Shown piece after piece: positions 29,153 to 58,019 of a stretch of DNA of 58,019 bases. The position numbers and the translations under genes are program-made. Origin of the DNA: Phoronis australis. Its lineage: Eukaryota; Animalia; Phoronida. The DNA lies in NCBI GenBank assembly GCA_002633005.1, contig NMRA01000893.1, forward strand, positions 50,253 to 108,271, given 5' to 3'. Position 1 is the stretch's first letter; each line of letters opens with the position of its first letter. The notes under the pieces are model-generated. The model was not told the origin of the DNA and ran no database searches. It saw nothing but the letters and a program-made list of their open reading frames with translations.

Positions 29153-29525
29153 ATGGCGGGAATTGGTATTTGTTTCTTCGTATGTTGTATAATACTGCAC
29201 GGACTAATTTTTAGCGGTATTCACGCGGAGGTTCCACGTAACACGAACACTGTAGTGTGTGGCGAGGAGTGCTATCAACCTTGGACACAGTGGGAATGCG
29301 TATTTCGCGTGGTTCGAATGCGAACCAGGCAAGTTCTGTTGGACCATGACCGACCCAGTCATTGCAGCGATCGATGCCTGGCCACTCAAATTGCTACTGG
29401 CACGTGCTTCGAGGAAAACGCTGAGCCGATAAATTCCGCTTCGCTGGAAGATTTAGTAGATTTTGTGTCCAGGTCCTCGCTCCCCGAACATAACCACACT
29501 TATACGACGTCATCGCCATGCTCTG
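29153..29525 (+). CDS. Protease exon 1: signal peptide and TSP1-like domain
   Basis: MAGIGICFFVCCIILHGLIFSGIHA|EV; CYQPWTQWEC...RMRTRQV...C...C...C (WxxW and RxRxR); donor g|gtacgt. Confidence 0.8.
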
Positions 29526-32500
29526 GTACGTAAATGATAGATGTACATGTATACGCCATGTGTATTGTCGCCCATGTTCTTAGTTCCAATGTAAATGTGC
29601 CCATTTATTTTTTCTTGATAACAGATTAACAAGTAATAATTCAAGTTCAAATGTATCACAGTCTTATTTTCGTAAAGACTGGCATTTCACTGGCCATTTT
29701 CATTAGTGTGCTAAAATACAGTGTAGCGACCTCGTTCATTAAACTTGTGTCATCTTGTCACTTACCCAAACTATAGAAGCCACGTGACGTTTGACGTACG
29801 ATCACACATTATAATCTCAATATCCATCTTGTCAATCACCTGCTTGTCGAATGTACTGTGAGCGCATGTCAAATATTCTAACTGTATAGCAATTTATTCA
29901 ATAATTTGATGTTGCATGTTCGTTGTTCTTTTTATACTGTTTGTTTACCAGAGTTAATTAAACCCAGTAAAATACGCTTAGCGCCTAGCCGGCCATGACA
30001 GCTAGTCTGCCTCAGTTGTTATTCAATCGTTGGCGCAGGACTGGTACTAGTCCGAGAAACTATGTTTGTATGTATACGGCATTCAGGATTTGAACCATTT
30101 ATTCCGATAAAACAGCCATGGACGGCATGCCTTCGTCTTGTGTCAGTGCGAGTGGTCTCGATCGGCTGCACCGCCTGGGTCATCGTCTGCAGGTCCGAGC
30201 CCGGCAAAATAATTTCGGTCAAAATTTATTTTGCCACATTTAGTCAACATTCTCAGTACAAATTGTCCTATTTTGGTTTTATTAAAGTTGAGGTCCGCTG
30301 TCGATTATTTTATCCCCGTTTGCAGGCACTGGTCAGTCCAGTCGCAGAGCCAGCATGGGTTCTGGAGTATAGTTGTACTTCCGGTTTCGCGGTTAGTTCA
30401 AATCGGCGGTGTGATCTTCCGGTTGAAGTCGTGAGTGACGCGTTTATTTAAACTTTCTTCGACTACGGATTGTGTGTTGGTTATGGGATAAGTACTGTGT
30501 GGTTCCTTATTATCATCTTCGAACCATTCAAAGGTTAAAAACGTGTGCTTCTAGGAATTTATGGCTCCCCAATTCCTAGCCCAAGATCTCAACTGTCAAC
30601 AAATTTCTGCTTAACGTACTCGTTGTTCTTGCAGCCAGCAAAACAAGTTTTTCTATTAAAACTAATCCCATCTATCTACTTGAAAGTCACACACCATATG
30701 TAAATCAGGTGACATTACCGTTTTTTTAACTGCATGCGCTATGTCCGAGACGCGGCATTGTTCAAAAATGTTATGTTCAAGTTTTCCGCACAAAAACCCA
30801 CGTACCAATTTGATAGGCGTATAAAGCGAATGATGTAATGCTTAATGTTGCCAGTCAAAGGGAAGGTCGTTCAAGGTCAAGGAAGCATGCAACTCAAGAA
30901 AAATACTAAATTGTATTATTCAGAGTGGTTCTCTGCCACTGAAACAGAACTGAACCTTCACAACAGGTATTTTTACTGTTTGTTCTCAAAGATATTGAAT
31001 TTCTATTGATGTCAAAACATTTTCCTTTACGTGTAGTTTCAAATTTCAAAAACGATCTTTCTTCGGGTTGTCTCATTCTTATCCCACAGAGCAAGGTGCG
31101 TCTCCTTTTAATTTGTGGTGGGTGAAGCCATAGACGTAGCACATTTCGCTAATAATATGGAAAATATGACTTTGACCTTTGTTGTAAACGAAACAGTGAT
31201 GACTTCAAGCATGCATGCGGTAGCCTGTGCAATTGATTAAGCACTAATTGTTTAAAATTAGTTAGAGGTGACCACAGGTTTTCCTTCGCAGGCGTTTCAA
31301 AAATCGCGAATTTTGTGATTTTATTCTGGAAATTCCCGCACAGGGAAAAGTGATCATAGCGCTGCAGCAGCCGTTACGAATAGTAATGTCTTCAGGAACT
31401 CATTGAAACATATTTTTTACGAGCTGTCGCTTTCCATGCCTCTTTAAATACTAACAGTAAATATCACCCAATGGGTAATTTGTTTACAATGCGAAAGCAC
31501 ACGTACCCACAAAAAATCAGTCTGCAATGCACCTTCTACTTCGCCTACATAGACACTATTTGGCAGTCTTAAGAGGTTACATGTACCTGTCCCAACCTAG
31601 AAATGTAACCTATACTCCCGAACACTATCAAGATATTGACTAAGAAGTTACCCTACTTCGTTTTAGAAAACCCTGCGACCTGCAGACCAGCGCAAGGTTC
31701 ATTGGATAGGAGAGCATCACCAGCGTCACACAACTTCAATCACTACTCGTGTGTCACCGATAAAGCTGAAGACAAAGAAGTTCATGTTATAGCCGTCTCG
31801 AGGGCTTCACCTTGGTCTTTCTTCGGACTGCGTCGGCAGCAAGTCAACGTGAGTAACGCAGCGTCACCCAGCGGAAGATGCGCATTATACCACTGTGCAC
31901 TGGTGCGCCGAGTCACGTCGATTTCCGTTGAAGACTCGTTCACTGCACAAGTCTTGGTTTAACGTCGTAAACCAATGATGCAGGCGTGTACTAAATAGCA
32001 AGGCTTTGTTTTTTGCAACCTTAAAATGGGACTACATATAACTGCTACCTACCCGCATAACACGCCAATCGAGTCCCGCAGTCGATGTCGATAGTGCCAG
32101 TGCCGGGTTAAGATTGATGAAGGGATGTTCCTGCATTGTCTTCCGTGAATGACTGACCAATACGCTCTTCTTTAGTTAACTACCCAGCTTATCAGATCTA
32201 TTGATAATAATTTGAAAATTGGGGGATGTGAGAAAAAACAATCAAAAACAACACATCCGCCGGTGTTATCAAATTTGTTGTCAGCTCCAAAATTCAATTA
32301 CAATTCGTCTTTGAGAAAAACCTTACCAGAATTAAAGTGGCAATAAACCGTTTCGCCGAAAAAAATAATTTTTATTTAGATCACTAGTTCCGCTATAATG
32401 AAATTAGGTCAATTTGTTCCTTACCGTCTAGTGCGATTATACTTGGTTTTGTAAACTAAGCATCAACAGTTCGCCGTTGCTCGGGACCGTGCTTAGCGAA

Positions 32501-35500
32501 TAAAGTGACACGCTGCAACAAGACAAGTTGCAATCTCAAGCGATAACAACTTGCCAGTTCATTCCAAGTTCAGGAACAATACATGTACCTGTGAAACAAC
32601 TGGAGGCCAGTAATATTTACAACAAATGTAAGCTCTGGCCTGTTACATACTGTAACACTCTTCCGGCATGGTCTTAAGAAACGTGATTTGTCTGCTCTGA
32701 TAAACTACAATGACAGAATTTTCGATTTTTTGACTGAAAGCGCTTTTCGTTGTGAAAATCAATCTGGTGGAAAGCGGGAAACAAACACGGTTGCTTTTTC
32801 TTGAAGGTTAACCTGGTGAAACTACCGGGAAGTGAAACGAGGCCTGTTGATCTCATTCTCTCGTCATCGCGTCAGCCAATCGAGTGGGTGATCACATGTG
32901 CAAGCAGCTCAATTATACTTGGAAATGTGACGCTGGTGAGTACATGTATGGTTCAGCACTCCACTAAGTAGTCCTTCGGTAGTAGCTTTTACGAATGCTT
33001 CAGGCTGAATGAAAGTTCTTCGTTTTACATTAAAATACTATAATATTTGGAAACATAGTAAGTTTTCTTTGTGACGTTATTTCGCCACCACTTGGTATTC
33101 CACACGAAATAGGCCACCACTCATTCTTGGCCGTCGGCCGCCGCGCCTAACAGAATCGCCGTACATGCATGTACATGTAGACCACCGGTATCCTATTTTT
33201 CCTTGCCTAAATTTATTTTCAATGTTTTGGCAAGTTGTCAGGATATTATTACTGCACATATATAGGAATTTTAATTATTTTTTTCTGATATTGCATGTTC
33301 GTTGTTATGTTTATACTGTTTACCAGGATTAACTTACTCCATGTAGAACACGCTTACTCCAGTCGAATAGACGGCCTTGTTATTCAATCTGAATCTCACT
33401 TCCCACTTTGCGGCAAATCTAAAATAGATATGACTCGGCTCAAGTTCGTGACATGTGAGAATGTTTATGATTTTTCCCTTAGGGATTTCGTTTGGATAAA
33501 CTCGTTGGTACTGATGGCTTTCTTACAACATGTTCTAAGCGCGTAATAAGGGTTAAAACGTACCTACTACATGTAGGTCTTTAAGACTATGCTTGGCACA
33601 TAAAATGACGCGCCGTGACAAGCCAGCTCGTAGGGCCTGGTCCGTGCTGTGTTGACCGGTCAGTTATTTCCAAGGTCAGTGAATTAATCTCCAATTTGAT
33701 TGAAGATCTACATGTATTTGAAAACCAATTTTTTAACGGTAAGTGCATGGTCTAAAAACAAAGTTTTTCAAGAAAAATTAGATAAATTCCGACTGTTCAC
33801 CCGTCTGTAATTACAGTTGTCACGAAATTCCCGAACTAGACACACTGTTGGCAGTAACTGTCAGAGGACGCCATCGCCAACTTCTGCATTGCTTGACTGG
33901 TCGGTTACCTATGATGGACGCCATAGTCTTGACAGAGCAACAGCTATTAACGGCTTCATCACATCTTTCACCGGGCAAAGAGAGGCGGAGGCATGGACAC
34001 TCTCTGTTGGAGTAGTCGAAGACGGCTGCCGAGAACGCACTGCAAGAAAAGAGGCTGCCCTGAATGCCGAGGAAGGTTGTTTTTTACTCCACGTAAAACT
34101 TTTTATTGCTTTTATCCAGTTGCCCATGTAATTTATCGTCTTGGAAATTTAGAATATTGCATTCAAGCAACAAAGTGTATTGCAACGCACTATGCAAACC
34201 TTGAGCAATGAACAGTGTTCGTTTTTGTTTTTGTTGGCAGTCAGAAGTCTGATGTTTCCACTCCGTTTGTCTTGCGTTGATGGAGAACTTAATTACGTTG
34301 TATTTTTCTGTTGGTATCAACAGATTCTGAGAATTGACGTCAATTCACCTGAGGCATTCCATCCCAAATACAGTAGGTCTTTACTGGTTATACAATGTAC
34401 TCCGTCTTCTTGCCACTTCGTAAGTACATGCAACTCTGGAGATGGTTTGCCAGCATTGACGAAAGCGATTACTCATAACGCTCAGGAACAAGTGCCTTAT
34501 GCATTCTCGTTTTGGAGTAACTTACCTGAGCTTTAGTATCGCCGAAACAATTACGAACGCAATGGCCATACATACTTAGCCTGCGATCTGTCGTAAAATT
34601 GCCCACTCCCACAGTAAATCACGTTCTTGCATGCAATATTGTCCTAGGTATACATTACTGAGCCCATATTTAACTCAAATAATTCTCCAGTGTTCCCTCT
34701 TTCCCAGTTGAGGAATGCATTACCTCCACGAGCTGTTGGGTGGAGTTCAACTTCAGGTACAGTCGAGTCTGGACGGACTGCCATGGGAGACGATTCGTGC
34801 ATTACAGAGGGGCGACAATTGGAAAATACATAGGAGTGGTTCTGTGTACGGAAAGCAGGTACATAACCATGTAGTTCTCTTTTTTCAAACCCCTATGTGT
34901 GTATTTAAACTTGGCCAACCCCGCCTTGTGCCTAGGGTAAATTTGATTTAGACCACCTGCCGTTCTAAATTCACTCTCGAATTTATTGATACCCAAACTG
35001 GAACTGCTTATTCCTGTCAAACCCAGAAATCACCCCTCACCCGAGGATGGAACATATTGGTTCGAGTAGAACTGTAAGTGACATGGATCATTTCTTTTTT
35101 GACAAAATGCGTGGTTTATAGCTGCTAAATCTCACATTTCGTAGCCATTTGCGAACCATGCGAACAACTTAAATTGGCTAAGAGTGAAACACTCTGGACG
35201 TGTAATTGCTCTGAAAAAAATACCAAGACATAATTAGCACCGTCAATTTTTATGAACAGTTCCACCATCACTCCTTCATCGCGACGACTTTCTGTGCACA
35301 TGCGGGGCCACAACGGGCATGGCACAAGCGGCAGAGTATTCTGTACAGTTCTCTGCCATCAGCAAAAGGCTAGTAGGGCGTACCGAAAGTATAGGCAGTC
35401 AGGTTTAAATCCCAGCAAATCGAAACCCGTGATTCGGATTTTTACTTGTCTTGTACACTAATTAAAATTATAAGCAACAATAAAAATGTGATTTTCTGTC

Positions 35501-38500
35501 TAGAGTACGCGTCCAATAAGCAATTACTATTACAAGGTTGGACAATTTAGAGTCTTGGAGCACCTTTCATTCTGATAAGCCATGGTAAATGCTCACGATT
35601 GCTTACGGTGCAAGTGTAATTATGACCTTTACTATGAAAATGAATTACAGCCCCCATATGTCTTCTTTCCTATAGTAGGTGCAAGAAATTGCACTTTTAG
35701 AAACAAGGTTGTTGACTAATTTTCTGGAAAACAAATTTTTTTCTTAGAAACCTGAGTACCAGAACACCTAGGCTGGGATTTTATCTAAATATTTGAGGAT
35801 CAAGTACAAGTTAGAACTATTTATAGTAAAGTTAGGGAAAATTCAGAGAGAAGTCGATGGTTAAGAACACGACATCGGAGGAAGGTGATACTTCAAATGC
35901 GATTCTATGGGACGGAATGTATAGCTGCTGAGGATGCGCATTTTTTTCATTTCTACATGATTGATCAAATGAAGTGACATTCGTTCTTATTTTCATTGGT
36001 CAAGAGAGAATTTGGCGGGTTGATCACATTCATGAAAACGCTATTCTTCAGTGCACTGAGAAATGACACAAAAAGAATTCATTTCCATAAATATTTGTGA
36101 ACATCCAAATGGTCTACAGGCGCTGCACCACAGGGGAGCTGAGGGGCTTTAGCCCCCTCACTTTTTTCAGTGCTGCGCCACCCATGTAACGCCATTATAA
36201 AAACTACTGTCGCATTCATTTTGCCATCACCACCACTTCTACGGTCGTCGTTCAAATTACCAACGCCACCTTTAAAACATCAGGATATCACTACCGTCAA
36301 CTACATTAATTCCATTTCCATGATGGTGTTGTTTTACATTTAGATACAAGCTCTTTATGAGCGATGACCTTCACGGCCTGTTTCTGGATATCGCAGACGG
36401 ATCTGGACACGGTGAAGATCACTGTGATTTTGTTGGAGGCGACGTGAGCACAGCCAATCTTCCAAATCACTTCTGGGACTGTCCAAGCACAACTGGTGAG
36501 CTGGTATTTTAAGAAAAAAAAATATATACATGTATGCTCCCGTTGGACACTACTGCTACGCAATGAAACCGACATAAAGTGACAGGGTCGACACTCGGCA
36601 GTACACGTGATTGTATGATGCAGTGTTGGGGATTTCAGTTTATGTCTATGTTTCTGAAATATGCTAATGATTAGGTTTTGATTTATCTGTGATATGGAAT
36701 TCAAAACAATTTTACCAAAGAAATCAGTAAATTGTTGTCAGCGGTTGCAAAATTCGAATAATGAAATAAGACAGGTTAGTACTTGTCAAAATAAAGCATA
36801 AAGACGTAGGTATTCATGGGCGGTGCAGCACTGAAAAAATGGGGGGTGGGGTGGTGGGCTATACACCTTCAGCCCCGTATGGTGCGCTCCACTTATGAAT
36901 TATTTCGCTTAAAATGTTTAGTTTACCGCTCATTGGACATTGGTATTTTTGATTCGCTGAAATAGTGTTCATTATAGCTTTATTTTGCTAAATATTGTAC
37001 CGGTAATTGTTGCAAGAGTCAAAGTACTCTAGTTCCACACGCGCGCGCTCAGCCTTTAATATGGGGACTCGAATTTCTGGCGACGTGGACCTTTTGGTAA
37101 CAAAAAAGCGGGCGGACTAAAAAAAGGAAAAAACGGGCGGACTAAAAAAGGAAAAAAAACGGGGATCCACTGTGAATTGCGCGTTTGTGATTGTTTTGTG
37201 GACTTTTGTCTCGTTTCCTCGGATTTTTTGTTTCTCAGACGTGGACCTTTTTGCCCACTTCGCTTCCTGGGCGCACGCATGTTCCATGACGGTATGCAAA
37301 GAAGACTGAGTAACTTGGAACTGAAAAGCAACAGATTTTGAATAAAACGTCAATTGTCTTTCCTGGCCATACGAATTGGTGGAATAAAATACCAATGACT
37401 GAACCATTTTATCCATTTCACTTCGAGTGACCAGGGCACTACATGTATATAGTGTAATTTCAAAAATAATCTGAACAGCCTCGAAATTCTACAAAGTTTC
37501 GACTTTCAAAACCGTGACTAAATATCCTCTTCTTAAACGTCTAGAACTTGTTTCAGTTCCAGCAAATTCTCGATAGAACCCCGAGAAGTGTGGCCTCACG
37601 CATTTTGTGGAAATCGCGACTACTTGCAACCCAACTCTTTTACAAACAAAGGATTCCCGGCTAAACGCCATCACGTCACATTGAAATTTGACTTGAGAAG
37701 AATATGCCAAGAAGCTCATACTTGTACAAGTTGGTCTGACAGAATTCTTTCGAGTCTGTCCAGTGTATTTTGAAAATTAATGTACGTGTACACGATTGGT
37801 CTTTCGTGCAGGATATTTCCGCTACAACAGCCAGCAGTCCATGCAAGTGGGAAACGTCGGCGCCAAACCCTCCTGGACCGGCAAGTACTTCGTAAGATGG
37901 TACGAGTGTGGTGTGAACATACCTGGGAACAAGACTGTTGTAAAATGTAAGTCCTGGAGGTATCTCAGACCGGGAGATAGAAATTCCAATAGTGACGTGC
38001 TGGTCAAGCTGGCTAACAGGGGGAATAAGCCACTTATGGTGTAAATGACCTACAGTTGGAGATATGACGTATAATTAATCACAATTACCGTTTTGTCAAC
38101 TTCCGGTAAGAATGGTTTTAAAATTCACCCGTTTCGGATTTATGGAAGCTGTAAAGGCTAATAAATGCCGACTTGTACATGTGTACATTGCCAAGCATTA
38201 CATTTGGAGGCACTCTGGTATGCGCGTCAGTTTTGTATTAGAAACATGTCTTTGGAAGTGTTTCAATTAATGGCTACATGTACACTGTACCTCTGGCATT
38301 AAGGTTGTAGGTCAGTCATCAACAGGCTGCACTTCGTTACTCCATAGAATTTTGGTGGACCTCTTCCAAATCGCTTAGTGGTGACGAAACGTTTATGCCT
38401 ATAAATATCACACTTTACTCCTAGTATCAAGAAGGTATCGTGGGATCGCGGTCCGCCGATGGACATTCGCGAGAATCTTGCGGTGAGAAATTTTTGGCTC

Positions 38501-41500
38501 ATGGTAGGGACTTTCCTATAAGATAACATTTAATGTTTGCGTTGACGAGAAATCACATTTACTTTCTAGTGTCGCCGGTTTCATCGGTTTACAACACATG
38601 TAGGAACTTTTTGAGCTTATTGGCGACGCACACAAATTTCACTCCAGTGACAGTGTAGGTTTGCGTGATCTCGCCAATCTATTGAATCCACTTCTGAAGT
38701 TTACATATATTACTTCGAACCGCGTTCCGTATAATAAATTTCTTGTCAGATAATTAGCGAGCTAACCCAATAGTCTTAATTGGCGAGATATGTTCGTCTA
38801 CGCATGCGTCCACGTTATCTTTGTAGACTTGACATCGTCGTCAGCAGGCGGAGTAACTGCTCAAGCCACTTCGACACCAACAATTGAAGATGCACAAGGT
38901 AACACACATTGCATTCCATTAACTGCAAGATTCTTGGGGATGGCAAAAAGTAAAAAGGTTGACTGTGATTGAATTGTAAAACTGACCATCCCGAAAAAAT
39001 GAACCAAGGACGTGATACTTTATAATACACTGGTACACGGTCTGATCATTAAATTAGTTTAATAGTTACCTCCCATCAGTTTATAGAGATTTTTGGCAAC
39101 GTGTTGGGCGAATTCAACCGATGCTATGTTCGGAATGAGGTTAACGTCATAAGGGGGAAAAGGGACTTGGCTTAACATGGATGATTCGAATATCGAAAGG
39201 CAAATCAGCTACGTTATCGGGAAAGAGCATAAAGTTACGAACTGAAGGGTACAGCAAGACAGCGAAACAACTCTCATGGGGAAAACTAGTGCAAAAAGAT
39301 TAGAAATCGTTGTTTAAATCCAACACTTGTCAATCGTTGTTTCTATTTTTTGAAATAAATGGCGCCATCCTGGTACTACTGTTACATCCACGTAGCAGCT
39401 GGATCAGACATGAAGTTTAAATCTCAAATGTGTTACTAATGTCGGCAACAAGTCACGTGGCTGTGTGGTCGTAGTCTGGCTTAAATGATTTCGATAATCT
39501 CTCCATTGAATCACTTGCAATACAGATGAAACAATTATTAATCATGTCTTATTGGATTTACTACGAAACAAATTTCCCTACTTTTCGAATTTGTCTGATT
39601 CGTTCTATTGGGTTTACTGGCTGGTTTCCACGATCTCGCCGCCCTCTGCCGGTGTAACAACTTTAAGCCCTAGACCAGGAGTAAGTTTTCTTACAATATC
39701 TTGATCAACGTTCCGTAGAGTAAGTTTCTTGCAAGGTAAGTGAGGCCACGCAAGTCTCTGCGTAACTTCATCTACGGAACGACCATGTTCTCATTGTAGA
39801 CGTGACATCCCCTTCAGCAGGCGGAGTAACAACTCAAGCCACTTCCACAACACTCAATGAAGATGAAGAAGGTAACGCCCATTAGGCTAACTACAAGCCA
39901 TGTAAAGATACAACTGCGGCAAAACTGATCATCGGCGAAAACTAAAACTAGAAATGTGTTGCTTTATGGCTTAAACGTACATGTACATGCTTAACAATTT
40001 CATCCCTCACTTAGAAATTTTTCGTCCTTTAGACAACGTTTTGGTCAAATTTGATCGATGAGCAGATATATGTTCGGACTGAAGCTGATTTCATCAGTTA
40101 GAAAGAAGAGACGTGGTTTTAGAATAAAAGATTCGAGCATGCATACATGTAGTCGAATCAACTAATTTGTAGTGGTGACGGTAAACTTCAGGACGGATGG
40201 AAAACATCTAGAGAACAAAACAAATCACATCGCCTCACAAGCGGTATTAAATTGCATAGTAACTCTTTAGACAATTTGATTCAGATGATATACTTGTCAG
40301 ATGTATCGTTGTTTGCGATTAAACCGACGAACGAATGGTGCCATCTTGGGACTTCTCTGACACCCACGTGACGGCTTGGTTGGATGTTAATTTCAAAATA
40401 AATTTTGTTAAGAGATGATAAGTGGTGTTGACCCTCACCTAAAATTCCTGGAGATGAACAAAATACTGTTGTGCTCATGGCAGCATTTAACGTTAAGACC
40501 TCTCATTATGTCCCGACTCATAAGAACATTATGATTTACTGTGTATATGCACTGTTAACGAGTGACATTACTGACATCATTTTGGTGCACTGACTTCTGT
40601 CGGTGGTGCACGGTTACTACCACGTGATCTGTTTATTTCCAATCAAGAATGCATGGCGTCACCAGACTGTTGGGTGGAGTTCAACTTCACTTACAGTCGG
40701 ACATGGACGGGCTGTCATGGGCGGCAATACATACGAAGAACAGGAGCGACAGTGGGGAGCTACATCGGTGTGGTTCTTTGCACCGCCAGAAGGTAGCGTG
40801 AGTTATCAGTGTAGATGTGGAAAACAACCATGCTATAGGCCTACATAATTTTGTCTCAGTGGCAGAGCTGCTTACCATGCGCAGTCCGCATATTAATGAC
40901 ACAAGAATTGCTTAGCACTGGACATGTAATTTGTAATCGTCCCAGTCTTGAAGTCTGTTGTTTTTGCGTGAAATCGGACACAAGGTGGCGGTGGCGGCAT
41001 GACGGCCGGTTTTCAAATCTTCTCTATGAAGAGCCATAGCTCCTTCGATGAATCTTGGCTGTAACTTGGCTCGTTAATAAATCGCACAAATACTATTAGG
41101 AGCATGCTACTCTCTTCCTACATTTGACTTTTACTTTTAGGCTCCCTTTTATGAGCTTCTCAGGCATGGCGCCGTATTGACGTTGTAGGCCCGGTCAAAT
41201 AACATTTAAATACCAAAATTCAGTACTGTACAGCAATAATCAGTCATGCCAGATTCTACGTAGCGCTTTATATAAGTTGATACGTTTATTTTTTATTATT
41301 TTTTCAGTTATCCAGGAGTCTGATGAGTGCAATTGTTCTTGATGCACACCAATTACTCCAAACATACAATTTTGTGAAAGGCTTGTTCTAAAATGTCCTC
41401 GTGGTTACCTGAATTGGAAAAGTATCCAAGATCTGAGACATTTTTAACATTGTGGTGTGCGTGCACGTTTGTATCTCAATTTCCGGGTCCAAACCACGCC

Positions 41501-44500
41501 ATAATAATGCCAGGCACGTCATCACCAAAGTTCCGTACAGGCAGCTTTGTTTGCTGCGCTTATGGTTGTTAGGCTATTTACAGTTACGGAACAAACAAAT
41601 GCAGAAACTCTACGGAACAAATTTCGGGATACGTTATTTAAGCGTTTCCCTTCTGGTAGGTGCGATCTAAAAATCGTAGGGGCTAACGGTAAATTGTATT
41701 TTTTCTTGTACAGATATAAGCTGTTTATGGGCGACGACCTCTATAGACTCTTTTTGAACATCGCGGATGGAAGTGGATACGGCCAGGATCATTGTGAATT
41801 GATTGGCGGAAGCGTTAACTCAGAGTGGCAATCTGGGAACTGTTTTGATTCTCCGCACACTATGGGTAAGAACGTATTTACAGTTTAATTTAAAGTGGAG
41901 CTTGCTCGCTAATTCGTTTTCTCTGTCATTGCTTGGTCAAATTAGACTGAAACAGCTTATAACGACGATGTGAATATGAGCTTTGCGTCGAAAATGATCC
42001 GTCGTAAATCACTCAACCTAGCTTATCCACTAAGTATCTTGGCGTGGTGTTGGGTAATTACGTGTACACTGCTTATGTGCTTGGGCCCCCCAGCTCGGGT
42101 ACGTCACAAGTGCAAAGGCCACGTATTTGCAGAATTGTTTGTTTTCTTCAGTAATCACTATAGCAGTCTTTTTCTTCGGAATTATTTCGTTATTTTGGAG
42201 GATTAGATTATCGATTATTACATGTGCCCCAACATTGTAAGTATAACTTCTTATGCGTGCTGGACTGTTAGGGATGTTGATTCTTTAATGGGTATAGCTC
42301 TGTGGCCTGTCATTAGTGTTATCAACAAAATATATGTTGTGCAGTCAGGCATGTGCTCTAGTGTTTGTAACTCTGTTTTCGTAATAAATTATCATGCAGC
42401 ATGCACGGCTTGTTTACGTGAAACCTGTCAGTCAACTCAAAATTCCCGCCAAGTTTTCTCATATTGCAACCCACACACTCTGCGAGTAAGTCAGGTGCCC
42501 ATGGTATCACTTTAAACTTCTGAACATTTATTCATTACTGCATGCATGTCGTGCAAGCGTCTGGCTGTTCAGGGAACGGAAGTGTGACAAAATGCAAGAT
42601 GAAATTCTCGTGACGATGGACAACTTGGGAGTTTCGATTCCCCACTCCTGTCGTGGTCACCGTAAACTAAGTTCTGAATGAGTTGGCAGACCGAACGCTG
42701 GATTGAGAAACTTCAGCAACAGTTCATCTAAGCAGGCAAACTCAGTCACGCAAATTCTACCCACAAGTTCTGATACTCCGTCACAAAACTCTCGCAGGAT
42801 ATTTCTGTATAGTATAACCCCTACATTGTCTGTGACCCACTGGGAAGTGGCCTGCTGACCTACTAGATTTAACACCACATACAGTTGATCACGTGATGGG
42901 CATCATTAAAGTTTCACTGTTGCAGTTATGTAGCACCCAAGAAAATGTCAAAATGTTTTAAATTTTGTTAAAAAGACATAAGCGGATCAAGGGGAGCGGG
43001 GCGAAGGAAGTCTGGACCCTCTTTTCGTTTGATTTAAGTGATATCAAATCCAGAATTTTCAAACGCCTGAAATGGTTGACTTGGACCCCCTTCTGTAAAA
43101 AGATTCGATTCGACCCCCTTTTTAAAGGCACGTATCTCGCCTGTGAATGACGTGGTCACATAACCCAATTTTTGTCGGATTGGTCAAACTGAAACATCGA
43201 ATTTTGCGGTCTGTATACCTTTAGAAAATCGATAGACATGTAGACATTTGTCTAAATGTTTATACGTGTAACCCGAAAAGATATATCTTAGTATATAGAA
43301 ATGCATAATAGCTCCGCAGTAGCAACCAAACGCCCAACCACCGAGTCACAACTATTTTCTCCCTGTTTAGATTTTCTGTCAGTGTACTTCCAGAAGATAT
43401 GTTTAATGTCAAAACTGTGTCTCAGAATTTTTTGTTTGGTTTAAAATCAAGAGACATATCATTCTTAGAAAATTGCTGAATACTGAATGACATTCCATTA
43501 AAAGACATCGGTTATGGTAAGAGGTAATCTCAGACAAGGGCCAATACTGAAGGTATGTTTTTTCCCTAATAATGCACCTGTCGAAAACGACATTTTCACC
43601 GAAACACATGATCGCGTGACCACAGGAATCTGGTAGCGTGGTTGGCCTCGACTCCTAGTTTCAGAAAATGTATATATTTATGGTTTTATAGTTGCTTGTT
43701 ACTTTCTACATTTCAAGAAGAAGAGAGTATTCAATTAGGGGTGCACATAACCTTAAGGAATTTTACGATTGCAGGATATTATCGCTCCTTCAGTCAAGAA
43801 AGGATGACTTCCGGTCCAATTGGTGCGATTCCCTCCTGGACCGGCAGGTACTACTGCAAATGGTACGAGTGTGGCGTTGACATACCAGGCAGTCTTAGAG
43901 TTGTCGAATGTAAGTCGTTTTACGATTGCACTCAAGTACTGAGAATAGTAGTTTTGTTTGACGAGGAAGTATACAAAAGGATGTGTTTGTTTCACAAACC
44001 TGATGCGATGGCATTTTTTATCAGTTTTCCTCGTAGTGGACTGGCCTGCATTTGGAATTACTAGGTTTTTCTATACATGTACGTTACATTTGTTTTTAAG
44101 AGCACCGGTTGATGTGTTTTCTTTAAAACCGCAATTTATTTACAAGCTATTTCTTTTCCTTATCATACTTGGACACACAGGTCTCCAGGAAGTCAAAAGG
44201 TGGCGCTTGCTACAAATTTAAATATTCACGGTTTTAATGAGACGTAGCATTTTCAACTGGTGTCAGTGAATTCAAGCATGGAAACGAAATGAATCGTAGA
44301 CAATTTTGCACGTGTACACGTGAGCGGAATATCACTCTGCGTGGCAGTCAATAAATTTACAAAACAGGGAAAACTATATTTGTGTGCCCATGCGTATTCC
44401 TTACACTACACTTCAGCAAAAATATGGTGCTTGCGCGTGGCAAAAAACGCTGCAAACAAAGTGGTGAAAAGAATTCCACTTTTATAATTCCAGCTACGTG

Positions 44501-47500
44501 TCCTTAAAGTCCAGTCATTGGCCAGCAAACCACGTGTTTTGCATTCAGTGAATATACCTTATTTGCGAATACTCGCGTAGCGATCTTGCCAAATTCGAAA
44601 TAGCTTCAACCTTATGAAACGCTTAGCCGGCCAGGGCGTAAACCCAAGACGATCACAAAGCACTTTCGACACGAAATCGTAGTTTACATGTGTGGAACAC
44701 TGGAAAACAGTGAATTCTAATTCATAATTCAACAGTTCAATTTAATCTCGAGCCCTGACTCTACTTACATGTGTGTCTGCATGGCGTACATCTCAAGGAT
44801 GAGGTAAACCGGACGGGTGTATTTGAATAAGACGATGAACCCAGGTTTTGATCACCATATCACTCGATCGAGAACTACACATTATGTTTTGTTCATAGTA
44901 ACAGTGGTTTTCTATTTTTGTATCTCGTGTCATAAAGGTTAACCAGAACGGCTTAAGACAAAATTACAAAAGACGAGATAAGTAAGCGCTAATTTGAAAT
45001 GTTAAAATACCCATGTAGGTCAGATCATATATTAGTATGGCAAAAATCTGACTAAATGGCCTCGTTTTCGAGACCTATACTACACCACGACGCAAGAGTT
45101 TGGGTTCGAAATTACATGTATATTCCAACCTCATCGACCAATTCTTTCAGTCGCTGCCATTTGATTAAAGTAACATAAATTTCGTAAGTCCCCAGGTAAT
45201 TTACAAAACACTTGTCTTTCACTAGTTTGATTTCCGTGACATTGCGCGCTTTCATTTTTGTGAGAAACGAAGCGGCGTGTTTTGCAGTCCGCAGACGTAT
45301 TTCAACTGGCGAGAAAAGCAAAATTGTGCAGGAAAGAACACGGAAAATTTAACTAGTGAAAGTCGAGCCTTTGGCGACTGAGTACGCACAAGCTAGTCGG
45401 AACCTTGGCGCAAACTAGCAATATGACGACCCCTGAATGGAATTGCTTGATGAGGCGGGAATTATGTGATGGAATTCGCTGTTTCCGATTCATCTCCAAG
45501 TACATGTACCTTGTGATTGTTTTGCCGCTACAGAGCGCAACCCGAAATATACCCTCTAACACAGCGCCACTTATACTGGAAAGTGGCCCTGAGTAAACAT
45601 GATGAACGACACACGGAATTTCGTGTGTGGGCATCATTGCGCATGCTTGGTCAGAAGTTCAACGATCACATCACCACCACTTGCACACGCCTTCTGTGCA
45701 CTGAACTTGTTTGGGCTTAAGCCACTGGATCGGGGTTTTCTTAATTTAGCTTACTTCGATCACTGCCCGTTTTAATAAATTACAACTATTCATAGTCAAA
45801 GGCGGTTGCCATACTACGTAACAGTAACTAAAAGGGGTTTCCCAGATTTCAACCATGGGAATGACTGAATGTTATGACGTCGGTTTCTTTACTTTAACCA
45901 ATGAGAAGCTATGTTGAACAACATTTCACATGGCTACCTTTCGTAGCCCTGAAAAAGTGTACCCGAAATAACTGCTGCAACTAACAACGTCACGTGATTT
46001 TACGACAGTGCGTTTGTCAAGCACCCCGTCGCCACCAACCAGTCTTGCGAACACACCAGAAGCACGAATGGTCACAACAGAACAACCTGTTACCCATGTT
46101 GCTCGACAGTTCAACCGACCTCAAAACTACACCGCTGAACTTGGATCCTTGGCCAGCTTCGAATGCTCGACAGACCCACCTACTGTCGTGAAATGGTAAG
46201 GAGTACATGTACCTTGAAAGGAAACTTTGACTGAAGAAAGGCAAGCTACTGTTTTGACATGTTCTTGTATATGCATATGTAGCTGCAAAGTGTCCAAGTT
46301 CTGTTTAAAAACACAAGTAAGGAATTAATGAATACAGGGAACTGTACAACGGAGAATCACTATTTGAATACATACTGTACCTAAGATAGAATAAACAGAA
46401 TTAGAACTTGTCAATATATAGATTTTTGATGAAAGTAAAACTGGTGGCTCGTTTGAAATTCATTCTCCTCTAAAGTACATGTAGCCTAGATACGGTGTTG
46501 TAGAAGCAGATGAGCAGCAGAATCCGACAGTGGGTCGTATTACTAGGTAAAGTGTGAGTACATTGATTATGGTCGATGAGCCGAGTTCCTTTGTAAATGT
46601 GCACCCTCAGTAGTGTTGCTTGTAGGAACACGGCGAGTGTGACTCCGGCATAGATTGGGGAATAAGATAAATACCCGTGAGTTGCGTTTGCAAGTGAAGA
46701 AGTACATGTATGTTCATAAACGTTTGAGCAATGTAGTTCGGGTAGCCTGATATCTCGGTTGTACGTCAGTTTTTCGTTGCCAAAGAGTCCTGCTCAATTC
46801 TTGCCTCATTTGCATACTGAGGGAGATCGATGTGGGTGAATCCGTGATGATGTGCAAAATAAAAATAGATACTATCGTTTAGTGGCGTGAGTCCTGTTCC
46901 TATCCGTTCACGGTAGTAGATTATGTCATTACTATCACCAGCGACGTTTTCACGTTCACTCATAGATCAAGTACACCCGTCTGTTGCTGACTATTTATTA
47001 CCTGTTTGATTACCAATATGAGCCAATCCTCCAGTGAAATTATACCCGCTGCGGTATGGTCGACAACCTCATTGCTTAGGCTACTTGACATCTGCTTCCA
47101 AGGCAGAGCACCAAAATGCGACACACCTTTCATTATCATGGTTTCATAAGATGTGGTATTAAAAAATGTACCAATTTCCTTGTTGTTCCTCTCAGCTCCC
47201 CCACCTCCCCTCCCTCTCCAGGCTCTCTCTCCTTACTCCCCCTCCCTCACTTCCTTCTCCCTCACCCTCCCTCCTCACACCCATCCATCCCGAAGGTTCC
47301 TCGTCATAGTTATATCTATAATCACAGCTCACCCTTTTGCAGGTACCACGAGGACTCAGACCATTCCATGGAAACTAGCACAAACGTTGAAGTGCACCCA
47401 GAAGGATTGCTCATGATTTTGTCCGTTCAGCAAAGTCATGCTGGAAAGTACACGTGTAAAACTCAAAGTGAATCTGGACCCAACTTTCAATCTTCTGCTT

Positions 47501-50500
47501 ACCTGCTGTTGAAAGAGGATCACCTACCTGGATTGTGCAACAGTTCGTATAACTGTTCTCGTTATACTGGTCTTTTGTTATTTGAATTGTATAACAGGAA
47601 GTCAACGTCTGAGCCTATGGCGCGACTCCGTAGATAACATGCATAAGGCAGTGGAGTCACTAGTAACCATCAGGGAACTTCGTCGCGTGTGCTGCCCACC
47701 GTAACAACAACAACTGGTCACGTAGCTACGTTATATTACGTTTATGTATGGTGTCAGCTCTTGGTAAATTAACGAAATAACACCCTGTCGGATTCATTGA
47801 TTAGAATTTCATTCTAGAAATGAGTTTAGGACTATCTAACCGGGCGTCTGAGAAGAGCGTATACTGTAGCTCTGAACGTGAGGAATATTTTAATATTCTT
47901 TTAATACCGCTGTTCGTCTTTTTATTTTACACCATTTTACCAAACTGCAACTAGCGTTTCTATTTACCCGTATACTGCCAAACGTGCACTGCATGTTTTG
48001 ATTTTAGATCACTTAAAATTTAAGATTCGCCTCAGCCTGTTACTTACTCAAATTAAGAGCGGATTGTTGCCTGGGCTCCAGCACTTGAAATCGTTTAACA
48101 CACGCTGTTCATGTAGTTGTTTGTTCCTGGTACCACCATTGTTTCAGAAACGCCAGCTTGTGAAGTTCGATTCGTCTATTACTGAGAGTTTGCATTAGTA
48201 ATTTGATTATTTGCATAGTGAATTTCTATAAAGTAAAGTTCAAGGATAGGTTAGCTTTGTGTGTCGCCCGTTTGACTATTGGTTAATCTTATGTGTAATT
48301 TCGCCAAACAATTTGGAAAAGTGAAATAATCAAGGATTAAAGTCAAGTTAAGCAGGAAATATGAGGAAGGAGCTTGAGTTCCAAAATGGATTAATTAACA
48401 AAACCAAACTGTCTAGGAAAAATTAAAGACCTTCTCATTAAATCTTCTGTAGGATTCAGACTGGCCCCGGAAAATGTAACACTTCAGCAACGAGAGCAAC
48501 ACATATTCGAGTGCGAGGCAGAGATAACCAGCGACATTACTTGGCACAGAAACGGTCGCCAAATACCCAGATGGAGACCTGGAAGGCGCCTGGGGATGCT
48601 ACTAAGTAAAAAATTCTTCATAAGGAGTTCCCATTTGGATGATACTGGTGAATACTCTTGCACCGCTATCACACCAAACGGTTGTCGGATCCAGCACACA
48701 TTTCGTTTGGCTGTGGTGTCACGTGATCCCGACGGTAAGCGTTTGCAAACCGACCAACACACACTCTTTTTAGTAATAAATTGCACTTCTGACTTTCGTG
48801 GTAGCTTGAAGAGTTGTTGCTTGTCAAAGTGTGCAATACAAAGTGATGCAGAAGTATTACCCATGTTTTTCTTCCTAAAAAATTTCTCAAACTTAACAAA
48901 AGAAGATTAGGGTAATGTTATTTTCTACAGAACTGCCAAAATGTTCATTCTGTGCAATTTGATAAGGTTCACCTTTTTGTTGCCAGCCTATTTACAGGAT
49001 GGCATACCGTTTTTGAGGGCAAGTGAGGTCAAAAACAATGTCTTTTTGGAGTAAAATACCTTAATAACTTCCACCCTTCATATAAAACTGTTTGGTAATC
49101 GCATGGCATTATTGTGCCTTTTTGGGCTCGAGGATATGAATAACCAATTGGTACTGGTCAGTTTTGAGTGTACGTTGCGATGTTTGACAAATTCTGGGAA
49201 GTTTCGTGGAGAAAAAAGGAGTGTTGCAAGGGATTACCATTGGTTGCACCAGAATGGGACAAACCCGCATACAGCTAGCATGGCACTTGATTGGCTTAGA
49301 CAGAGGTTTGTGAGGAAACGTTATTAGCCGAAGACATGACATTTGATGGAAAGCACAGTTGCTGGATTTGAGGTCGTTTAATGTGTATTGATGACTTTAC
49401 TAAAGACTGTGTTATTACAAATAATTTTGAAAAAATTTGAGAAGCCGTGGGGAGAAAGAAATTGCAAAAATCAGGCAACACATTCCTTAATGAATACAGT
49501 CGCGTGATCGACAATTTTACTCTCGACATGCAAGCGTGCTTGCAACAAAGTAAGGGACACTTACGGCAAATTGTAACCAGTCATAGAAACGGTAACGAAT
49601 CAATAACAATCTGATTTGTAAAGTTGAAAAACGTAAATGTATTTATACTGAGCAAAGCCTTGGGCTCACCCACTTCACGTAATAACACCCTTGTTTTCCT
49701 ACTTTGTCTGCTCCTTGACTAGTTTGCCGCCCTTTCAAGCCTACTACATGTATGTGCCTGCTTACCTGTCTACCTCCCTGGCTAACTCCCNNNNNNNNNN
49801 NNNNNNNNNNNNNNNNNNNNNNNNNNNNNNNNNNNNNNNNNNNNNNNNNNNNNNNNNNNNNNNNNNNNNNNNNNNNNNNNNNNNNNNNNNNNNNNNNNNN
49901 NNNNNNNNNNNNNNNNNNNNNNNNNNNNNNNNNNNNNNNNNNNNNNNNNNNNNNNNNNNNNNNNNNNNNNNNNNNNNNNNNNNNNNNNNNNNNNNNNNNN
50001 NNNNNNNNNNNNNNNNNNNNNNNNNNNNNNNNNNNNNNNNNNNNNNNNNNNNNNNNNNNNNNNNNNNNNNNNNNNNNNNNNNNNNNNNNNNNNNNNNNNN
50101 NNNNNNNNNNNNNNNNNNNNNNNNNNNNNNNNNNNNNNNNNNNNNNNNNNNNNNNNNNNNNNNNNNNNNNNNNNNNNNNNNNNNNNNNNNNNNNNNNNNN
50201 NNNNNNNNNNNNNNNNNNNNNNNNNNNNNNNNNNNNNNNNNNNNNNNNNNNNNNNNNNNNNNNNNNNNNNNNNNNNNNNNNNNNNNNNNNNNNNNNNNNN
50301 NNNNNNNNNNNNNNNNNNNNNNNNNNNNNNNNNNNNNNNNNNNNNNNNNNNNNNNNNNNNNNNNNNNNNNNNNNNNNNNNNNNNNNNNNNNNNNNNNNNN
50401 NNNNNNNNNNNNNNNNNNNNNNNNNNNNNNNNNNNNNNNNNNNNNNNNNNNNNNNNNNNNNNNNNNNNNNNNNNNNNNNNNNNNNNNNNNNNNNNNNNNN

Positions 50501-51665
50501 NNNNNNNNNNNNNNNNNNNNNNNNNNNNNNNNNNNNNNNNNNNNNNNNNNNNNNNNNNNNNNNNNNNNNNNNNNNNNNNNNNNNNNNNNNNNNNNNNNNN
50601 NNNNNNNNNNNNNNNNNNNNNNNNNNNNNNNNNNNNNNNNNNNNNNNNNNNNNNNNNNNNNNNNNNNNNNNNNNNNNNNNNNNNNNNNNNNNNNNNNNNN
50701 NNNNNNNNNNNNNNNNNNNNNNNNNNNNNNNNNNNNNNNNNNNNNNNNNNNNNNNNNNNNNNNNNNNNNNNNNNNTAGAATGCGGACTGCCCGTAGAATC
50801 AACTTAAAAATATTACTTTCTCTCGTCTAACTAGAATGCGGACTGCCCGTAGAATCAACTTAAAAATATTACTTTCTCTCGTCTAACTAGAATGCGGACT
50901 GCCCGTACAAAATCAACTAGAAGAGGGGTCTCTAGAACAAACAGGTCGGATTGTGGGAGGAGAAGAAGCCCCGACTGGATCAGCTCCATGGCAGGTATCC
51001 AACTTCATGTTTCCCTTTGCATTCTGAAAGGCTATTTACATGTACATGTTGAATAGTATACAATGGCTGACTTCACCGAGGTTCATATATTGGGTTTCAG
51101 ACCCCATGTGATGATAGCGCGCGTTCATGAGTTCCATGACGCGCATGTTGCGCAAGGTCCCGTGGCGCAGTGGTAAAGCATTGTCTTGCGAACGAGAGAG
51201 GTCGTTACCATAGCAGCGGTAAATATGAGTGGTCAATATGGAAAATATAATTATTGACCCCAAAATATGGATTTTAAACTTGATGACCTGCCAAATCATG
51301 CACTGTACATAATAAAAGATATTAGTTCACAACATCTGATATTTCTGCCTTCTTGATTGACTAAAGCCCGAATTTGCCAGTACCGTGTCTGGAGGGTGGC
51401 GCTGAAGTAAGAGATTTGCAGCACGCGACAAGGGTTTTCCCCATGTCTGCTGGAGTTATTTTACATGACATGTAGTCATCATCCCTTGTTTTTTTACAGG
51501 CAATGATGTATTACTATCTTCCAAATGATCCTGAAAATGGCATGTTCTTATGTGGCGCAATCCTTATTGGCCGCCGGCACGTGCTAACAGCAGCGCATTG
51601 CTTTGCCATGATTCCAAAACTCGAAATTGGAGAATTTCAACTTCAAAACTTGGAGCTGAGACTAG
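29153..51665 (+). CDS. Secreted mosaic S1 serine protease, 3'-partial. Exons: 29153-29525, 31667-31848, 32807-32935, 33817-34075, 34708-34858, 36344-36495, 37812-37946, 38827-38898, 39800-39871, 40648-40792, 41714-41865, 43775-43909, 46009-46195, 47343-47542, 48453-48734, 50891-50994, 51500-51665
   Basis: 17 exons with AG/GT borders join in one open frame (2896 nt, 965 codons plus 1 nt), from a hydrophobic signal peptide to CG...R|IVGG...PWQ and CGAILI...VLTAAHC. One junction spans the assembly gap. Confidence 0.85.
31667..34075 (+). CDS. Protease exons 2-4 (31667-31848, 32807-32935, 33817-34075): betaglycan/endoglin orphan-domain-like module
   Basis: ATC...ASH...SC...KEVHVIAV...QVNVNL...RPVDLILSSSRQPIEWVI...LLSRNS...LLDWS...GFITSFTG...LSVG...C; intron phases 1-0-0-1. 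Confidence 0.7.
34708..37946 (+). CDS. Protease exons 5-7 (34708-34858, 36344-36495, 37812-37946): TARSH/FNDC1 C-terminal-like domain 1
   Basis: DCHGRRFV...KYIGVVLC..RYKLFMSDDLHGLFLDIADGSGHGEDHCDFV...GYFR...VRWYECGVNIPG. Confidence 0.88.
36117..36187. mobile_element. Short MITE-like repeat, inverted partner of 36815-36892
   Basis: ttttttcagtgctgcgccacccatg is a near reverse complement of catgggcggtgcagcactgaaaaaa. Confidence 0.65.
36815..36892. mobile_element. Short MITE-like repeat, inverted partner of 36117-36187
   Basis: Reverse-complement similarity over about 70 bp. Confidence 0.65.
38827..39871 (+). CDS. Protease exons 8-9 (38827-38898, 39800-39871): duplicated 72-bp Ser/Thr-rich linker exons
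   Basis: LTSSSAGGVTAQATSTPTIEDAQ and VTSPSAGGVTTQATSTTLNEDEE, both tgtag|...|gtaac, phase 1-1. Confidence 0.85.
40648..43909 (+). CDS. Protease exons 10-12 (40648-40792, 41714-41865, 43775-43909): TARSH/FNDC1 C-terminal-like domain 2
   Basis: GCHGRQYIRRT...YIGVVLC..RYKLFMGDDL..FLNIADGSGYGQDHCELI...GYYR...KWYECGVDIPG. Confidence 0.88.
46009..47542 (+). CDS. Protease exons 13-14 (46009-46195, 47343-47542): linker and Ig domain 1
   Basis: PQNYTAELGSLASFEC...VKWYH...LMILSVQQSHAGKYTC (I-set pattern). Confidence 0.88.
47190..47291. repeat. C/T-rich low-complexity tract
   Basis: Almost pure pyrimidine run upstream of the 47343 acceptor. Confidence 0.8.
48453..48734 (+). CDS. Protease exon 15: Ig domain 2
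   Basis: PENVTLQQREQHIFEC...ITWHRNG...IRSSHLDDTGEYSC. Confidence 0.9.
49791..50775. other. Assembly gap
   Basis: Run of N. Confidence 1.
50776..50907 (+). repeat. 56-bp tandem repeat made of the splice acceptor plus the first codons of the activation-site exon
   Basis: tagaatgcggactgcccgtagaatcaacttaaaaatattactttctctcgtctaac twice (50776-50887); the third partial copy is the real exon start. Confidence 0.9.
50891..50994 (+). CDS. Protease exon 16: zymogen activation site
   Basis: ECGLPVQNQLEEGSLEQTGR|IVGGEEAPTGSAPWQ, donor gtatcc. Confidence 0.95.
51500..51665 (+). CDS. Protease exon 17: catalytic His region
   Basis: AMMYY...FLCGAILIGRRHVLTAAHCF...LELRLG. Confidence 0.95.
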
Positions 51666-52389
51666 GTAAGACTAGGTAAACTTACGATAGTCATACCGTA
51701 GCGACTGATAGTATTGTAAATTTTGCGTGTCTTCATGTCTCTGACACGTTTGTCATTACACCTAATCTCACGAGAGCCTCGAGCCCAGAATAGGGTCATA
51801 GATTGTCTTATTGCATGGTTTTATTTCTTCTTAAATGTAATACAAGACACAAATTACACACAGTTAAAAGTGCAACCCAACTAAACATGTTGTTCAGTTC
51901 CAATCTCCAAAACATGATTCCACAAGGCCATACTGCATGTTATTGCAAACGCAGGGTTGGATAATTAATGAATCTGCCAACCAGAAATTAGAAATAACGA
52001 AGACGTGGAATAGGGCTGTACGGCTATTGAACTCTCCTCAGTGTCGGAGATAGGGAAGCGCATGACCTCGTTTTGGAAATCGGGCACTTTCTCAGGTCAT
52101 GTTGGAAACCGACAAGGTTTGTGGTCGTGGAAATATTCCCGATTTCAACCCTTAATTAAGAGCCGGAATTGAACAGGTATCTTCAAGAAAGGGAAATCAA
52201 TTTAATTTAACCCGACGAACTTGATTTACCCACTCGCTCTTCATTTTTTACGTTGATGTCGGGAAGGCGAAGAATATGGGCGGCCGTTTATGCAAAAAAC
52301 ATTAAAATGTATATTCAATTCCATTTAATGAACTCAATGCCAACTTTATGACAATTCAATCCTATCTTGTGTATTCAATGCTATTACAT

Positions 52390-52690
52390 CAATCCAATCC
52401 ACATTCGTCGATTCTATATCGTGAATTCAATGCTGTTTTGTATATTCTATCCTGTTTACTGAATTCAATGTTGTTTAGTCATTCTCTTTCGTCTATCCTA
52501 TCGTCTCGTGAATTCAATCCAGTTTCGTCGATTCTGTTTCGTCAATCCTAGCGGCCTATGGGTGAAACTAACAACTTCGTGTATTCTATCCTGTCGTGAA
52601 TTCAATCCTGTTTCGTCAATCCTAGCGGCGTATGGGTGAAACTAATAACTTCGTGTATTCTATCCTATCGTGAATTCAATCCTATTTTGT
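52390..52690. repeat. Nested tandem repeats rich in cgtgaattcaat, including a 74-bp unit twice; probably a transposon subterminal region
   Basis: gtttcgtcaatcctagcggc.tatgggtgaaactaa.aacttcgtgtattctatcct repeated. Confidence 0.75.
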
Positions 52691-58000: not shown

Positions 58001-58019
58001 CTTTGCAGTTAATATGAAT

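Follow-up and report, generated by a model that had tools for sequence, protein, structure and literature searches.

Gene organization and expression

We analyzed a 58,019-nucleotide stretch of animal genomic DNA from Phoronis australis (contig NMRA01000893.1 of assembly GCA_002633005.1, positions 50,253 to 108,271 of the forward strand; hereafter, the window), which has a GC content of ∼40% and contains a 985-base assembly gap at positions 49791–50775. Its central feature is a gene for a mosaic serine protease of the S1A (trypsin-like) type. Seventeen exons on the + strand, rebuilt by hand from the sequence, span positions 29153 to 51665 (Table 1), the same start and end as in an initial annotation of this DNA. 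All introns are of the GT-AG type with compatible splice phases, and the joined exons (2896 nucleotides) form one stop-free frame of 965 residues, as the initial annotation had claimed. The domain order is a predicted signal peptide, a cysteine-rich segment, one domain assigned to the orphan-region (OR) type of betaglycan and endoglin, two TARSH_C domains, two immunoglobulin (Ig) domains, a CG linker, an R/IVGG activation site and the equivalent of the protease residue His57. The N-terminus is the sole place in the 965 residues where a 19-residue Kyte-Doolittle window exceeds 1.5; residues 1 to ∼25 are predicted to be a signal peptide, as annotated initially, and the protein to be secreted.

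Expression was assessed with three stranded raw-read runs of one study and one contig set, chosen by species label; ∼18–19% of each raw run was read. At least 12 of the 16 junctions were seen in RNA reads exactly at the modelled sites, with 6–29 reads each, and all junction reads are sense (first mates on the minus strand only). The joint from 48734 to 50891 across the assembly gap, for which the initial annotation had recommended a check, is present in nine reads and one contig. Read depth is low in the bins that hold exons 1 and 2 and the start of exon 3, and stems almost entirely from the sense strand. Reads join the last TARSH_C exon (exon 12) to the first Ig exon (exon 13) and onward to the protease; the locus is confirmed as one real, spliced and expressed gene.

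Beyond exon 17, 22 reads continue in frame for 30 further letters as G-K-T-L-S-P-F-E-V-E-E-G, a normal trypsin loop. This continuation has no match in the window at up to 3 mismatches. The 18th exon lies outside the window, and the gene is cut by the window end rather than shown to be broken.

Table 1. Exons of the protease gene, with positions in the window and supporting evidence.
Feature	Position	Strand	Evidence
Exon 1: start codon, predicted signal peptide, six-Cys segment with W-x2-W and R-x-R, spacer	29153..29525	+	Sense-only reads in bin 28900-29563
Exon 2: OR domain start (YSC...EVHV), aromatic PWSFF loop at betaglycan ligand-binding loop position	31667..31848	+	OR profile, alignment
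Exon 3: OR domain middle	32807..32935	+	OR profile
Exon 4: OR domain end (G-x-ITSF-x-G...W-x-L)	33817..34075	+	OR profile; RNA joint to exon 5, 14 reads
Exon 5: TARSH_C copy 1, first part	34708..34858	+	Pfam E 2e-08; RNA joint to exon 6, 11 reads
Exon 6: TARSH_C copy 1, middle	36344..36495	+	Pfam E 1e-12; RNA joint to exon 7, 15 reads
Exon 7: TARSH_C copy 1, end	37812..37946	+	Pfam E 2e-05; RNA joint to exon 8, 10 reads
Exon 8: Ser/Thr-rich linker, copy a	38827..38898	+	RNA joint to exon 9, 18 reads; 81% identity with exon 9
Exon 9: Ser/Thr-rich linker, copy b	39800..39871	+	RNA joint to exon 10, 19 reads; 81% identity with exon 8
Exon 10: TARSH_C copy 2, first part	40648..40792	+	Pfam E 7e-11; RNA joint to exon 11, 25 reads
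Exon 11: TARSH_C copy 2, middle	41714..41865	+	Pfam E 1e-11; RNA joint 10-11
Exon 12: TARSH_C copy 2, end	43775..43909	+	Pfam E 3e-05; RNA joint to exon 13, 15 reads
Exon 13: Ser/Thr/Pro-rich linker and first half of Ig domain 1	46009..46195	+	RNA joint to exon 14, 6 reads
Exon 14: second half of Ig domain 1	47343..47542	+	Pfam I-set E 3e-04; RNA joint to exon 15, 29 reads
Exon 15: Ig domain 2	48453..48734	+	Pfam I-set E 1e-07; RNA joint over gap to exon 16, 9 reads and one contig
Exon 16: linker Cys877 (CG), activation site R895/IVGG, protease domain start	50891..50994	+	RNA joint to exon 17, 14 reads
Exon 17: protease domain, Cys42/Cys58 equivalents and His57 (TAAHC)	51500..51665	+	Pfam Trypsin E 6e-06; 22 reads run on in frame
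Intron 17, extends past window end	51666..58019	+	No GDSGG, DSGGP or DIAL in any frame

The acceptor of exon 16 is embedded in a 56-nucleotide tandem repeat at positions 50776–50906 (two identical copies directly after the gap and a partial third), which consequently offers decoy AG sites that would lead to a stop; the RNA uses the last AG of the repeat. The assembly gap may hold further copies. At the other end of the gene, the first seven bases of intron 17 (51666–51672) are identical to the first seven bases of the next exon in the reads, which may be chance, and a 10-nucleotide tandem duplication adjoins at the donor. A candidate additional exon at ∼30328–30433 was discarded, since phases of 0/0 are incompatible with a place behind exon 1 and the OR profile does not match it.

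Identification of the orphan-type domain

The Pfam scan covered 15 of the 17 exons, all except the two 23-residue linker exons, and gave no match in exons 2–4. Searching 1.84 billion proteins with a profile of exon 10 returned 41 matches, including mollusc and ambulacrarian proteins with an unnamed domain like that of exons 2–4. A five-sequence profile of this domain led to 20 proteins, with sponge, coral, mollusc, ambulacrarian and amphioxus sequences among them. Several members carry the Pfam tag PF26060, displayed without a family name.

A 21-sequence profile of the family, built without the Phoronis sequence, matches residues 139–293 with 44.7 bits (E 7e-16), and the 200-residue OR region scores 50.5 bits compared to a best of 6.6 in 1000 shuffles. 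(A score of 94 bits came from a profile that included the gene itself, and is circular; it was not used.) In the PDB, betaglycan is the only match to the 21-sequence profile below E 1 (E 8e-09). The AlphaFold model of the Amphiura member, with a predicted local distance difference test (pLDDT) score of 90, matches the betaglycan and endoglin orphan regions in Foldseek (E 4e-09 to 3e-04). With VIA-align, its best hit is betaglycan (6MZN; Z 18.1, root-mean-square deviation 2.5, 153 residues aligned), followed by matches at Z 14.4 and 12.2 (5I04, endoglin) and then by a drop to 3.7. This fold evidence comes from the model of a family member and not from the gene's own domain. The assignment of exons 2–4 to one OR domain of the betaglycan/endoglin type thus takes two steps, from gene to family by profile and from family to betaglycan and endoglin by predicted fold, and the evidence for it is indirect but strong. 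The label "orphan-like" given initially is well supported.

The 965 residues contain one OR match, directly followed by TARSH_C, and no two tandem intertwined units. The PWSFF loop aligns with the main binding loop of betaglycan (PNSSSAFQ, in the available part of PMC11865472) and supplies three aromatic residues; as many occur at this position in one of the 20 family members scored (one of the 21 was unscorable). Exon 4 alone gave no real PDB match and no Atlas match, and an Atlas search with the OR region of a Gigantopelta protein (P0005) returned unrelated rows only (TM ≤0.34). Word-seeded homologue searches with exons 4 and 11 among longer proteins found nothing, which is weak evidence.

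Single or repeated OR units with an EGF-like lead-in are also found in coral, sponge and amphioxus proteins of many architectures (P0056, P0057, P0060, P0063, P0066, P0068). The single units are candidate un-duplicated relatives of the betaglycan/endoglin orphan region. PF26060 already tags many of these OR units.

TARSH_C, Ig and N-terminal regions

Six exons match TARSH_C (PF21731), exons 5–7 and 10–12, and make up two internal copies that are followed by the Ig and trypsin domains. The duplicated cassette keeps its exon sizes (151/145, 152/152 and 135/135 nucleotides). I-set matches lie in exons 14 and 15, so that the initial assignment of two TARSH_C and two Ig domains stands. FN3 has no Pfam match in the 15 exons scanned.

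The segment encoded by exon 1 shows, by eye, a W-x2-W-x-C motif, an R-x-R motif and six cysteines, and had been labelled TSP1-like. This label found no support: the segment has no match in Pfam or the PDB, does not score above shuffles against a local six-sequence profile, and gives an unusable fold in a single-sequence model (pLDDT 47). Mollusc relatives carry TSP1 in front of OR, and the segment may be a decayed TSP1.

Protease domain

S1A zymogens are typically exported and activated by a cut after an arginine, and their pro-chain is typically retained by a disulfide between a linker cysteine and Cys122. The combination of a CG linker and R/IVGG is the layout of cascade zymogens. The Phoronis protein has the linker cysteine (Cys877), an activation site (R895/IVGG) on an exon backed by RNA, His943 (His57, in TAAHC) and the Cys42-Cys58 pair (Cys928 and Cys944), with a Pfam Trypsin match to the region. 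Both the mosaic zymogen layout ending in trypsin and the individual motifs reported initially are therefore present.

A check for downstream Asp and GDSGG exons had also been proposed initially: no frame of the window contains GDSGG, DSGGP or DIAL, and the reads run into an exon beyond it. The exons expected to carry Asp102 and Ser195 lie beyond the window. The visible part of the protease has diverged and carries an insertion behind His57. Among solved structures, exon 17 matches plasma kallikrein, thrombin, factor D and factor XI best, all weakly (at most 24 bits over 55 residues). Related proteases score at most 21.9 bits, compared to 24.4 bits for plasma kallikrein, and exon 17 is thus no closer to these relatives than to plasma kallikrein.

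Related proteins and origin of the gene

The most similar domain set occurs in uncharacterised ambulacrarian (echinoderm and hemichordate) proteases from Glandiceps (XP_077997970, P0064), Amphiura (XP_072032084, P0062), Holothuria (KAJ8020052, P0065/P0079) and Saccoglossus (LOC100368155, P0044), which have the order Ig-trypsin-spacer-EGF-like-OR-TARSH_C; a protein from Anneissia (LOC117114948, P0027) has the same order without OR. Like the Phoronis protein, the first four combine Ig, trypsin, a single OR and TARSH_C, with Ig directly before the CG linker and activation site and OR directly before TARSH_C. However, their modules stand behind the protease, with one Ig and one TARSH_C, whereas those of Phoronis stand in front, with Ig and TARSH_C doubled and the EGF-like lead-in lost. 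The part of the Phoronis protein encoded in the window ends within the protease domain, and a further tail may follow beyond it.

An amphioxus protease (LOC118413629, P0059) has the polarity of the Phoronis protein, with OR in front of Ig-Ig-CG-trypsin. Its order is OR-OR-Frizzled-Cys-rich-Ig-Ig-trypsin, with one or two OR units that have EGF-like lead-ins, and it differs in having no TARSH_C; the comparison is one of architecture, and not of shown orthology between the protease domains. Its Branchiostoma lanceolatum orthologues are automatically named "F2". Mollusc proteins from Pinctada (KAK3090466, P0007), Magallana (LOC109617207, P0061) and Mytilus (CAC5376155, P0070) have TSP1 before OR, and the Pinctada and Gigantopelta proteins have OR before TARSH_C, as in Phoronis (the Pinctada protein reads OR-TSP1-OR-TARSH_C). 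In contrast to the Phoronis protein, these mollusc proteins lack Ig and protease domains, and have true TSP1 repeats and an intact EGF-like lead-in. Elsewhere, OR and TARSH_C occur in modular proteins with TSP1, EGF, Sushi, WAP, PAN, FN3, LDLa or kringle domains. No close orthologue with the domain order of the gene is present among the 41 and 20 matches and cluster members, the searches being shallow for animals.

Five full-length trypsin relatives with OR and/or TARSH_C (P0059, P0062, P0064, P0079 and P0027) retain the catalytic His and Asp, GDSGG and the S1 Asp together with a CG linker like that of Phoronis. A sixth, from Saccoglossus, is a low-quality model without GDSGG; an error in the gene model is the probable cause, as the relative from Glandiceps is intact.

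The best TARSH_C matches are nemertean and mollusc. In a tree of 43 TARSH_C rows, the two Phoronis copies form a sister pair (99/91) that groups (99/94) with the Pinctada protein, which has no protease domain; a quick tree of 23 rows agrees (91). As a result, separate assembly of the gene and the ambulacrarian proteases is favoured. It is not proven, because an approximately unbiased (AU) test does not reject a grouping with the ambulacrarian protease TARSH_C (p 0.058), the OR tree does not place the gene, and exon 17 is no closer to the related proteases than to plasma kallikrein. The front end probably derives from a lophotrochozoan OR/TARSH_C protein without a protease, which became fused with an Ig-Ig-trypsin unit, the TARSH_C cassette being duplicated internally.

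One of the nemertean sequences, from Lineus longissimus (XP_064632163, P0001), has six tandem TARSH_C domains, three Ig domains and PAN domains. Its Ig part presumably resembles the ectodomain of a LAR-type receptor phosphatase, and the model may thus be chimeric or represent a recent fusion.

Proposed function

We tentatively propose, as the most probable reading though at a little below an even chance, that the gene encodes a secreted S1A zymogen whose front end (OR, two TARSH_C and two Ig domains) docks the enzyme on extracellular matrix or on the surface of cells, where its cutting would be limited and regulated. By analogy with established S1A biochemistry, the protein would be exported through its predicted signal peptide, and an upstream Arg-specific protease would cut between R895 and I896. 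The front end would stay tethered through a bond between Cys877 and the Cys122 equivalent, the latter encoded in an unseen exon. The relatives suggest a complete triad with Arg/Lys specificity. The retained modules would be spaced by the Ser/Thr-rich linkers, and OR and TARSH_C would bind matrix or surface partners, which is the weakest step of the proposal. This reading is suggested by the open and RNA-joined frame, the restriction of the hydrophobic segment to the N-terminus, the presence of the triad in the relatives and the occurrence of OR and TARSH_C in modular proteins.

Several observations weigh against the docking proposal. The literature searched shows no account of what TARSH_C binds. 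Asp102, Cys122, Asp189 and Ser195 are not seen in the exons within the window. The OR domain is very divergent: its branch in the OR tree has a length of 2.7, and it keeps 18 of 27 near-invariant core columns; it has lost the GSDxGGG motif and the EGF-like lead-in (0 of 11 conserved columns aligned), for which no missing exon was found in any + strand frame. Given this divergence, its function may be lost or changed. The AU result above also counts here, as do the junctions 1-2, 2-3, 3-4 and 11-12, which are not among the joints listed (15 of 36).

These same junctions could be taken to indicate that an OR/TARSH_C protein and an Ig-trypsin protease are encoded by two different genes, or that exon 1 belongs elsewhere, and non-protease OR/TARSH_C proteins do exist (P0005, P0007, P0022). 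We regard this as highly improbable: reads join exon 12 through exon 13 to the protease, junction 11-12 falls inside one TARSH_C domain and junctions 2-3 and 3-4 inside one OR domain, and no other candidate signal peptide occurs in the frame. A catalytically dead homologue acting as a scaffold or cofactor is also quite unlikely. The absence of Asp102 and Ser195 from the window and the divergence of the seen part, with its insertion and scores of at most 22 bits against related proteases, would fit such a protein, but neither the activation site nor His57 nor the Cys42-Cys58 pair shows any defect, and the full triad is present in five of six relatives. A soluble enzyme of an immune or clotting cascade, with front-end modules for the recognition of cofactors or of wound or microbial surfaces like those of factor C, ModSP and the coagulation factors, is a rather unlikely alternative, though a better candidate than the dead homologue. 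It would agree with the zymogen layout, the identity of the best solved matches of exon 17 and the automatic name of the amphioxus relative. These matches, however, are largely due to the TAAHC motif; the Pfam scan of 15 exons showed no clip, lectin, CUB, Sushi, Gla or kringle domain; and the literature searched for a described protease of this kind yields mostly arthropod cascades.

The fold of the OR family raises another alternative, in which OR binds a ligand of the TGF-beta/BMP/activin family or a latent complex, and the protease activates, releases or destroys that ligand. Ligand binding is the known role of orphan regions in the available parts of PMC11865472 and PMC5464963, and the aromatic residues of the PWSFF loop would be consistent with it. 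According to the same partial sources, however, betaglycan grips TGF-beta through OD1, OD2 and their linker (PMC11865472), where the gene offers a single divergent unit, and OR2 of endoglin does not bind BMP9 by itself (PMC5464963). Sponge, coral, mollusc and amphioxus proteins of widely differing architecture also contain single OR units; a TGF-beta-family ligand thus does not necessarily follow from the fold, and we consider this alternative unlikely. A bolder version, which we view as very doubtful, is that the single OR represents the un-duplicated ancestor of the betaglycan/endoglin ligand-binding region, and that three lineages (lophotrochozoan, ambulacrarians and amphioxus) separately fused it to a trypsin-type protease seeking TGF-beta/BMP-family factors. 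If so, enzymes that activate or destroy such factors would constitute an unrecognised proteolytic layer of TGF-beta control.

Other features of the window

Exons of a ceramide kinase-like gene, with DAGK_cat and CERK_C matches, lie at positions 2046–17476 (+), and a single-exon TRIM-NHL gene with RING, B-box and NHL domains at 24620–26617 (+). Probable remains of mobile elements are located at 4962–5911 and 10248–10547 (+): an RNase H-like frame recognised by eye, without a Pfam match, and a weak THAP match. Inside intron 17, a 78-codon frame at 52804–53037 (+) ends at a good donor and has no Pfam match; it is possibly the first exon of a nested gene or a transposon.

Comparison with known systems

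Marine invertebrates have many mosaic S1A proteases with unusual pro-chains, and this kind of protein is thus already known. The particular arrangement of known domains is undescribed, with similar uncharacterised combinations in other marine animals. The literature searched (without supplements, and with most subscription papers outside its coverage) contains no description of this protease or its relatives, and no paper was found for four locus identifiers and two Pfam identifiers. The initial statement that no characterised protease has this domain set therefore holds for the literature searched, but the set is not unique, as the ambulacrarian proteases have it in another order and the amphioxus protease combines OR, two Ig and trypsin. 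According to the available part of PMC10381214, a single TGFBR3 gene is present in echinoderms, whose serine proteases are still to be classified. The recurrence of OR, TARSH_C, Ig and trypsin together, in three orders and three lineages, suggests a functional pairing. It also offers a way to approach TARSH_C, which is present in human ABI3BP and FNDC1 and has no ligand described in the literature searched.

Betaglycan (TGFBR3) and endoglin share the orphan-region fold with the OR family of the gene. In both, two OR units are intertwined and accompanied by a ZP module and a membrane anchor, without any protease, whereas the gene has one OR unit, and no ZP module or transmembrane helix in the 965 residues seen. 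It was proposed that the endoglin orphan region arose from one ancestral unit by duplication and circular permutation, and tubulin cofactor C is the only distant structural relative named in the available part of that report (PMC5464963). The gene brings to light a single-copy domain of the betaglycan type whose occurrence ranges from sponge to amphioxus. Compared to tubulin cofactor C (Z 3.3), such single units (Z 12–18) are much closer candidates, and they make the duplication proposal testable.

The mosaic S1A cascade zymogens, such as plasma kallikrein, factor XI and protein C, and ModSP and factor C in arthropods, are built on similar principles. They share the modular pro-chain, CG linker cysteine, R/IVGG site and His57 motif with the Phoronis protein, but their pro-chain modules differ, and we know of no OR or TARSH_C domain in zymogens of this kind. 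TARSH_C is shared with ABI3BP/TARSH and FNDC1, in which a single C-terminal copy stands behind FN3 repeats with no protease, whereas the Phoronis protein has two internal copies.

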